The position numbers were made by a program, and so were the translations under genes. Shown here one piece after another: positions 50,636 through 50,937 of a stretch of 64,000 nt of DNA; within the stretch, counting starts at the first letter, position 1; the number at the start of each line of letters is the position of its first letter. The notes under the pieces are model-generated. The model searched no databases, had not been told where the DNA came from, and worked only from the letters and a program-made list of their open reading frames with translations. The stretch comes from Gammaproteobacteria bacterium (lineage in GTDB: Bacteria > Pseudomonadota > Gammaproteobacteria > JABHGC01): assembly GCA_027077805.1 (NCBI GenBank), contig JALWTS010000020.1, forward strand, positions 33,814-97,813, read 5' to 3'.

Positions 50636-50794
50636 AATTAAATAGAATACTTTAAATGAAGATAATGATTACAAAGACTCAGTTATCAGCCTAGCGTTGT
50701 TTTTTGATGAAATCAAGTTAGATTGTAAAAAATTAAGCAAGCTTGTTTATTTGCTTTAATGTCAATTCCAAAATTTATTAATCAAGCCCAATTT

Positions 50795-50810
50795 TGTGAC
50801 CAAGTTCACA
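50795..50810. promoter_or_regulatory. CRP/Vfr-type binding site 1 (TGTGA-N6-TCACA, perfect half-sites)
   Basis: attttGTGAccaagtTCACAtttt matches the CRP consensus aaaTGTGAtctagaTCACAttt at both arms with AT-rich flanks. Confidence 0.55.
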
Positions 50811-50844
50811 TTTTAAAACAAAATTTATTAATCAAGCCCAATTT

Positions 50845-50860
50845 TGCGATCAAGTTCACA
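50845..50860. promoter_or_regulatory. CRP/Vfr-type binding site 2 (TGCGA-N6-TCACA)
   Basis: Second copy, 50 bp downstream of site 1, one mismatch in the left arm; ~65 bp upstream of a TATAAT at 50905-50910. Confidence 0.5.
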
Positions 50861-50937
50861 GTTTTTTGATAATCAGGTATTACACTTACCATTGTGCGAT
50901 ACATTATAATTTATTCAATAACGAGAGGGCAATTCTT

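Follow-up and report, generated by a model that had tools for sequence, protein, structure and literature searches.

Candidate CRP/Vfr-type operators on a 50-bp tandem duplication upstream of a pilin-usher gene pair in an uncultured gammaproteobacterium

The DNA analysed here is a 64,000-nucleotide stretch of a gammaproteobacterial contig (JALWTS010000020.1, positions 33,814 to 97,813), called the window below. It includes an A/T-rich spacer just upstream of a gene for a putative chaperone-usher pilin. A 50-bp segment of this spacer is duplicated in tandem, and each copy holds one palindrome of the TGTGA-N6-TCACA class. From the letters of the DNA, we lean, if only a little, towards binding of the palindromes by a CRP/Vfr-like protein. 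If they are so bound, activation would be the likelier effect on the pilin gene, with repression a serious second choice.

The spacer (50636-50937) is 303-bp of intergenic DNA with 27% G+C. A gene of 428 amino acids (aa) reads leftwards on its left (49349-50635) and the pilin gene begins with the ATG at 50938 on its right. Tandem Repeats Finder called a single array at 50769-50865 with a period of 50, 1.9 copies, 93% matches and a score of 173. A repeat search returned 46-nt copies at 50769-50814 and 50819-50864, which are 93% identical with an offset of 50 bp. Compared in register, copy 1 (50770-50819) and copy 2 (50820-50869) agree at 42 of 50 positions, and the mismatches are at 50797, 50800, 50811 and 50815-50819. 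The opening 27 nt are identical between the units. The chance expectation for a pair like this is 0.00, and no shuffle had one.

The whole intergenic region is 100% identical between the window, an ENA scaffold (L001) and, from a different run, a Logan assembly (L002). Three assemblies have the identical two-copy sequence, and therefore the duplication is real and no assembly artefact. An earlier note on this DNA had described a 50-bp tandem repeat upstream of fimbrial genes, and both repeat programs and all three assemblies bear it out. The note had also proposed a comparison of the copy number across strains. This gave no variation, as two copies are present in three of three assemblies and the additional ones represent the same strain. 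A metagenome scan with the repeat unit gave 0 matches.

The 50 bp that follow the array (50870-50919) were considered as a degenerate third copy and rejected. Their in-register identity is 21/50 against about 15 expected for the composition, and only ATTGTGCGAT stands out. The spacer also has a weak 10-bp A-tract phasing signal. As a separate observation, the 303-bp spacer holds the hexamer TGCGAT at three places (50845, 50895-50900 and, inverted, 50629-50634) against 44 in both strands of the window (128 kb), and two of the three occurrences are exactly 50 bp apart.

Site 1, TGTGACCAAGTTCACA at 50795-50810 with its centre at 50802.5, fits the palindrome core at 10/10 positions, the Vfr consensus at 19/21 and the E. 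coli CRP consensus at 16/22. Site 2, TGCGATCAAGTTCACA at 50845-50860 with its centre at 50852.5, fits the same three at 9/10, 19/21 and 15/22. The two sites had been reported as a perfect TGTGA-N6-TCACA and a TGCGA...TCACA, and this was read correctly. That they match most of the 22-bp E. coli consensus is a fair description of these counts. The motif TGTGA-N6-TCACA is kept across distant bacteria, and surface structures are among the frequent CRP targets (review, PMC10187061).

A perfect TGTGA-N6-TCACA is expected 0.05 times in the 64-kb window and occurs at least once in 5 of 100 shuffles; site 1 is the sole one present. Sites with at most one core mismatch number six in the window, and four of them are in the intergenic 8%. 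The Vfr consensus is ANWWTGNGAWNY:AGWTCACAT (PMC8787478). At two mismatches or fewer, it is matched three times in the window (50791, 50841 and 48072), whereas 0.13 matches are expected and none of 100 shuffles reaches three. The right half AGTTCACA is perfect in all three sites, while the left halves vary as TGTGA, TGCGA and TGTAA. This asymmetry parallels the Vfr consensus (TGNGA ... TCACA). The inner spacer, with AG before TCACA, and the flanks agree with this consensus too.

The single core mismatch of site 2 is a C in the left half, position 6 in the 22-bp numbering, and the Vfr consensus tolerates it. With CRP, C at this position, where the protein kinks the DNA, is the low-affinity change of the CRP-S sites (PMC4595672). 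The CRP-S sites are Sxy/TfoX-dependent and serve the competence regulons of Enterobacteriaceae, Pasteurellaceae and Vibrionaceae (PMC4595672). Site 2 shares with them the TGCGA that lowers the intrinsic CRP affinity. However, the CRP-S class combines C at position 6 with G at position 17, whereas site 2 has C and A and site 1 has T and A at these positions. Site 2 is a hybrid in this respect.

The third Vfr match is remote from the duplication. This site, TGTAAAACAGTTCACA at 48076-48091 (21-bp match at 48072-48092), has the 12-mer AGTTCACATTTT in common with site 1. It is in a 102-bp spacer between a minus-strand operon for GspH/FimT-like minor pilins and the plus-strand thiO gene. The operon encodes a GspH/FimT-like pilin, PilV, the products of two further open reading frames (ORFs), a PilY1/PilC-like protein and a pilin. 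The homologous fimU minor-pilin operon of P. aeruginosa is activated by direct Vfr binding (PMC8787478).

Geometrically, the centres of sites 1 and 2 are exactly 50 bp apart. The earlier note had taken this as about five helical turns, with both sites on the same DNA face. The distance stands, but with 10.5 bp to the turn it amounts to 4.76 turns, which leaves the sites about 86 degrees out of line. Five turns would need a helical repeat of 10.0 bp, and the same face is only approximate. The note had also placed site 2 about 65 bp from a TATAAT. The distance is 52.5 bp to the first base of this hexamer, but the figure suits the position of -64.5 relative to the start inferred at 50917.

Three plus-strand candidates for the -10 element give three layouts. 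The TATAAT at 50905-50910 is a 6/6 match with no usable -35 (0-3/6), and relative to it site 2 is at -64.5 and site 1 at -114.5, between the class I positions. The TACACT at 50881-50886 is a 4/6 match that keeps the A of position 2 and the T of position 6, and with it the centres would be at -40.5 (site 2) and -90.5 (site 1), a class II/III-like layout. The promoter-like TTGCGA-18-GATAAT (9/12) at 50844-50873, with GATAAT at 50868-50873, puts them at -27.5 and -77.5. The left half of site 2 doubles as its -35, and this layout would be repressive. Productive centres for a CRP site include -41.5, -61.5 and -71.5. In E. coli, the CRP motif peaks at -41.5, -61.5 and -93.5 (PMC5957442).

Hexamers of the TACACT grade occur at 3.6-4.7% of positions, and the class II fit is roughly a 1-in-7 chance. 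It is weak evidence, because such hexamers are common in this DNA. As three -10 candidates give three layouts, the sign of regulation is not fixed by the sequence. The activation of fimbrial expression predicted in the earlier note was an assumption, and the possible cooperativity suggested there is likewise not supported. The GATAAT promoter would have a repressive layout, and cAMP-Vfr lowers the expression of chaperone-usher pili in A. baumannii.

In the favoured reading, a dimeric member of the CRP-FNR superfamily with CRP/Vfr/Clp specificity would use the palindromes as its operators, and it would probably respond to a cyclic nucleotide. Through the duplication, a control region with a single site would have gained a second. 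Of the two, the distal one is perfect, and the promoter-proximal one would be weakened by the C at the CRP kink position. With low certainty, the proximal site may activate beside the core promoter, either at about -40.5 (TACACT) or at about -61.5 to -64.5 (the TATAAT region). The distal site would then add a second contact to RNA polymerase, as in the class III promoters with tandem sites. The expression of pilin and usher would track the level of the second messenger, alongside the minor-pilin operon with its similar site.

A possible source of the messenger is the product of a gene about 17 kb to the right on this scaffold. It is a class III nucleotide cyclase of 302 aa (Guanylate_cyc, 2.5e-21) with an FHA domain, at 17142-18050 on the minus strand of L009. 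The bacterium is therefore probably able to synthesise a cyclic nucleotide. The cyclase belongs to a cluster outside the window (L009 15469-18050 and 20841-21020), where a PP2C phosphatase, a second FHA protein and a Ser/Thr kinase adjoin it. This composition suggests cyclic-nucleotide synthesis under phospho-threonine control.

A fuller scenario joins all these parts. A recent duplication would have built a two-site, class III-like -40.5/-90.5 promoter responsive to cyclic nucleotide. A Vfr-like regulator would control the minor-pilin operon and the pilin-usher pair together, fed by the FHA cyclase of the Ser/Thr kinase-phosphatase cluster, and the chaperone would come from ampD-ampE, an operon of cell-wall recycling. 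As a whole, this scenario is a long shot.

Several results weigh against operators of the CRP/Vfr kind. Although the sites are statistically unusual and fit the CRP/Vfr specificity class, so that this part of the earlier assignment holds, the regulator itself did not turn up. A tblastn search with E. coli CRP found no gene of the CRP family in about 83 kb, made up of the window and some 19 kb of flanks on the same scaffold. Site 2 is a duplicate of site 1 and therefore no independent evidence, which leaves two independent sites rather than three. The other of the two is also equivocal, as a promoter scan takes the TTCACA of this third site for the -35 of thiO (5/6 to TTGACA, in TTCACA-17-AAAAAT with an upstream TG), and the sequence may be this promoter element instead.

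The duplication and the promoter add to these reservations. The 46-nt core of the repeat has three differences, all in or adjoining the palindrome, and the remaining 26 nt are identical. Such clustering is not what one would expect with the palindrome under the strongest constraint, although so few differences (p of about 0.08) carry little weight. At 27% G+C, DNA will often contain a perfect TATAAT or a 4/6 match to the -10. Relative to the sole perfect -10, both sites are off the class I phase.

Comparison with homologous loci gives no help to the sites either. No relative of the pilin exceeds 50% identity among 5.8 billion proteins, and the nearest, at 50%, are from G+C-rich organisms. An usher scan of species-representative genomes gave only 25%-identical relatives. 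No CRP-like sites were found upstream of the homologous loci L006, L007, L013, L014 and L015, which have 58-65% G+C. Phylogenetic footprinting is uninformative, because the nearest homologues are distant and G+C-rich.

The source genome itself has 35-42% G+C and no close relative among sequenced organisms. Clustering at 90% identity leaves its HisF, AmpD and NrdA as singletons. For NrdA, no other protein in the collection exceeds 67% identity, and the few named matches are from metagenome-assembled genomes of Gammaproteobacteria and from methanotrophs.

The palindromes could owe their look to a promoter element. In this account, replication slippage duplicated a -35-like hexamer (TTCACA, 5/6 to TTGACA) together with A/T-rich promoter-upstream DNA, and the TGTGA partner is coincidental, which is unlikely though worth keeping in sight. 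The thiO -35 predicted in the third site would be a parallel case, a TATTAC is present 17 bp after the TTCACA at 50855-50860, the identical assemblies contain nothing showing selection on the sites, and the inter-copy differences gather in the palindrome. However, where a -10 has its key T, at position 6, the TATTAC has C. The chance of a TGTGA exactly 6 bp upstream of a given TTCACA is about 1 in 1000, a perfect core being the rarity counted above, and the flanks and the AG before TCACA fit the Vfr consensus as well. Rather improbable is another regulator at the same palindromes, either a non-CRP dimeric helix-turn-helix protein or a member of the CRP-FNR superfamily not sensing cyclic AMP (cAMP). 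Clp- or Bcam1349-like proteins are such members, responsive to cyclic di-GMP. The failure to find a CRP gene in about 83 kb would suit them, and in a deep-branching uncultured gammaproteobacterium, as the divergence of NrdA marks it, the regulators are not to be assumed. The three TGCGAT in the spacer also hint that the motif is not strictly TGTGA. But the TGTGA-N6-TCACA spacing is a hallmark of CRP/Vfr/Clp specificity, kept across phyla, and LacI-type operators have a different spacing.

Two further accounts were considered. An invertible promoter switch like fimS is very improbable, even though 14-nt inverted repeats flank a 200-bp segment of the spacer. The left arm TTGATCGCATAATT at 50626-50639 overlaps the start codon of the 428-aa gene and matches AATTTTGCGATCAA at 50840-50853 in 13 of 14 positions, and TGCGATCAA occurs twice in the window, both times within the arms. 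After inversion, a minus-strand promoter inside the segment (TAAACA-16-TACAAT, 50749-50722) would face the pilin gene. Yet a comparable inverted pair arises in 7 of 100 shuffles, and all three assemblies have one orientation only. Among the adjacent genes (thiO, tRNA-Arg, the 428-aa gene and the pilin gene) there is no recombinase or invertase, so the repeats are without the recombinase and the second orientation that go with a fimS-type element. Independently of any inversion, the right arm covers the left half of site 2. We give next to no credence to an action at the RNA level, in which the palindrome and a T-run would make a weak terminator or a leader hairpin. TGTGA...TCACA followed by TTTT or GTTTTTT superficially resembles a hairpin with a U-tract, but the stems are of 5 bp with two G-C pairs, and the stem of site 2 is mismatched. 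The hairpin or terminator was rejected, as no terminator was called, the fold had z = +0.28 with 122 of 200 shuffles folding at least as well, and Rfam had no match at the repeat.

The favoured reading, operators for a CRP/Vfr-like protein, has counterparts among the known promoters. The class III promoters with tandem CRP sites also have two CRP-type palindromes about 50 bp apart, and the sites here would be at -40.5 and -90.5 if TACACT is the -10. In this class, one activator site adjoins or overlaps the -35 region and the other is about 40-55 bp farther up. In E. coli deoP2 the CRP sites are near -40 and -90 (PMC5957442), and in V. cholerae tfoX they are at -41.5 and -84.5 (PMC4595672). Unlike those, the sites here arose by a recent-looking 50-bp duplication, and neither a CytR-like partner nor a CRP was identified.

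The likeness to the P. aeruginosa Vfr sites is in the 19/21 agreement with the consensus, the strong TCACA right half and the tolerant TGNGA left half. Moreover, a comparable site precedes the operon for minor pilins of FimT/PilV/PilY1 type in the window. The differences are that the host, with 37% G+C and the divergent NrdA described above, is no pseudomonad, that vfr was not found in the same 83 kb, and that the fimU site in Pseudomonas is far more degenerate.

In A. baumannii, cAMP-Vfr lowers the expression of the chaperone-usher genes csu and ABUW_2052-2055 and raises that of the type IV pilus genes (PMC11410210). The case is alike in that a cAMP/Vfr-type system stands over both chaperone-usher and type IV pili, which is proposed here. 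It differs in that the pilus there is the archaic Csu pilus, whereas the usher here is of the TcfC/CooC type, and no direct Vfr sites are given in PMC11410210.

The CS1 (Coo), CFA/I and Tcf pili make up the alternate (alpha, class 5) chaperone-usher clade and are controlled by the AraC-type Rns/CfaD. The locus here resembles theirs in the TcfC and CooC_C domains of the usher, in the chaperone nearest to TcfA and in the pilin model nearest to CfaB. It differs in the pilin without a Pfam family, in having no tip adhesin gene and in the chaperone gene, which is convergent and behind ampD-ampE. One pilin gene is present at the locus, and an AraC-type regulator gene is not found nearby.

The pilin gene (50938-51480, plus strand) encodes 180 aa with a signal peptide and is preceded by the Shine-Dalgarno sequence GAGAGGG at 50923-50929. 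The protein has no family match in Pfam or NCBIfam. Its AlphaFold2 model, built on 35 homologues, has a predicted local distance difference test (pLDDT) score of 81. The best structural matches of the model are the pilins CfaB of the CFA/I pili, CupE, CsuA/B, CS17 and PapE. As modelled, the 180-aa protein is a chaperone-usher pilin. Its homologues number 244 at E of 0.001 or below, are about 180 aa long, and many are metagenomic or from Sphingomonas.

The usher gene follows at 51554-53914 on the plus strand. It encodes 786 aa of the TcfC/CooC type, with 59.2 bits for TcfC (cut-off 29.4) and 58.8 bits for CooC_C (cut-off 29). The PapD/TcfA-like chaperone gene is on the minus strand at 53924-54616, with 27.9 bits for PapD_N (cut-off 23) and 5.6e-11 for TcfA. 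With the usher, the PapD-like chaperone and the pilin-fold model, the locus has the components of a chaperone-usher system of the TcfC/CooC type.

The genes do not form one operon, as the chaperone gene is on the opposite strand. It converges on the usher gene, and 9 bp separate their stop codons. Its ATG follows the ampE stop codon by 17 nt and has a GAGGA of its own, in the order ampD-ampE-chaperone (ampD-ampE at 54633-56059), and it is probably co-transcribed with ampD-ampE. The promoter under study serves pilin and usher only, and not the chaperone. The chaperone-usher operon claimed downstream thus has true chaperone-usher components, but as the chaperone is outside the transcription unit, the fimbrial operon should read as a pilin-usher pair. 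The convergent transcripts of usher and chaperone would overlap.

The convergent chaperone is not confined to this genome. The closest homologous locus, L006, has it too. In contrast, the gene order is the classical co-directional one in L007 and L008, whose pilins are about 47-48% identical.

Across the spacer, the divergent 428-aa gene (minus strand) encodes an N-terminal membrane anchor and, below threshold, a C-terminal SH3-like domain of the RimP type. The protein belongs to a widespread uncharacterised family of 634 representative clusters, which gives no pointer to the gene that the sites serve. A tRNA-Arg(CCT) gene at 49282-49357 on the plus strand overlaps the 3' end of this ORF by 9 nt on the opposite strand.

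Further left, the window has two consecutive minus-strand clusters for type IV minor pilins at 34493-40611 and 40915-48002. Each encodes a GspH/FimT-like pilin, PilV, pilin-like ORFs, a PilY1/PilC-like protein (966 and 1237 aa) and a terminal pilin. The CRP-like upstream site is at the second cluster only. For the thiO gene beyond this site, the L001 call at 48147 (MRVIIIGAG...) is probably the right start, rather than the first ATG, 48105. A thiamine pyrophosphate (TPP) riboswitch was not detected upstream of thiO, the sole Rfam match in the window being the tRNA.

The control of pili by CRP or Vfr and the tandem CRP sites are already well documented, and the finding opens no long-standing question. 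For annotation, the sites can serve as a seed motif for a regulon search. The locus also draws attention to a pilin family that lacks annotation and to chaperone-usher genes split in an unusual way. If the favoured reading is true, the duplication would be a clean natural case of a regulator site multiplied in tandem. It would also supply a concrete regulatory input, a cyclic nucleotide acting via a CRP/Vfr-like protein, for a surface pilus of a lineage known from metagenomes only.

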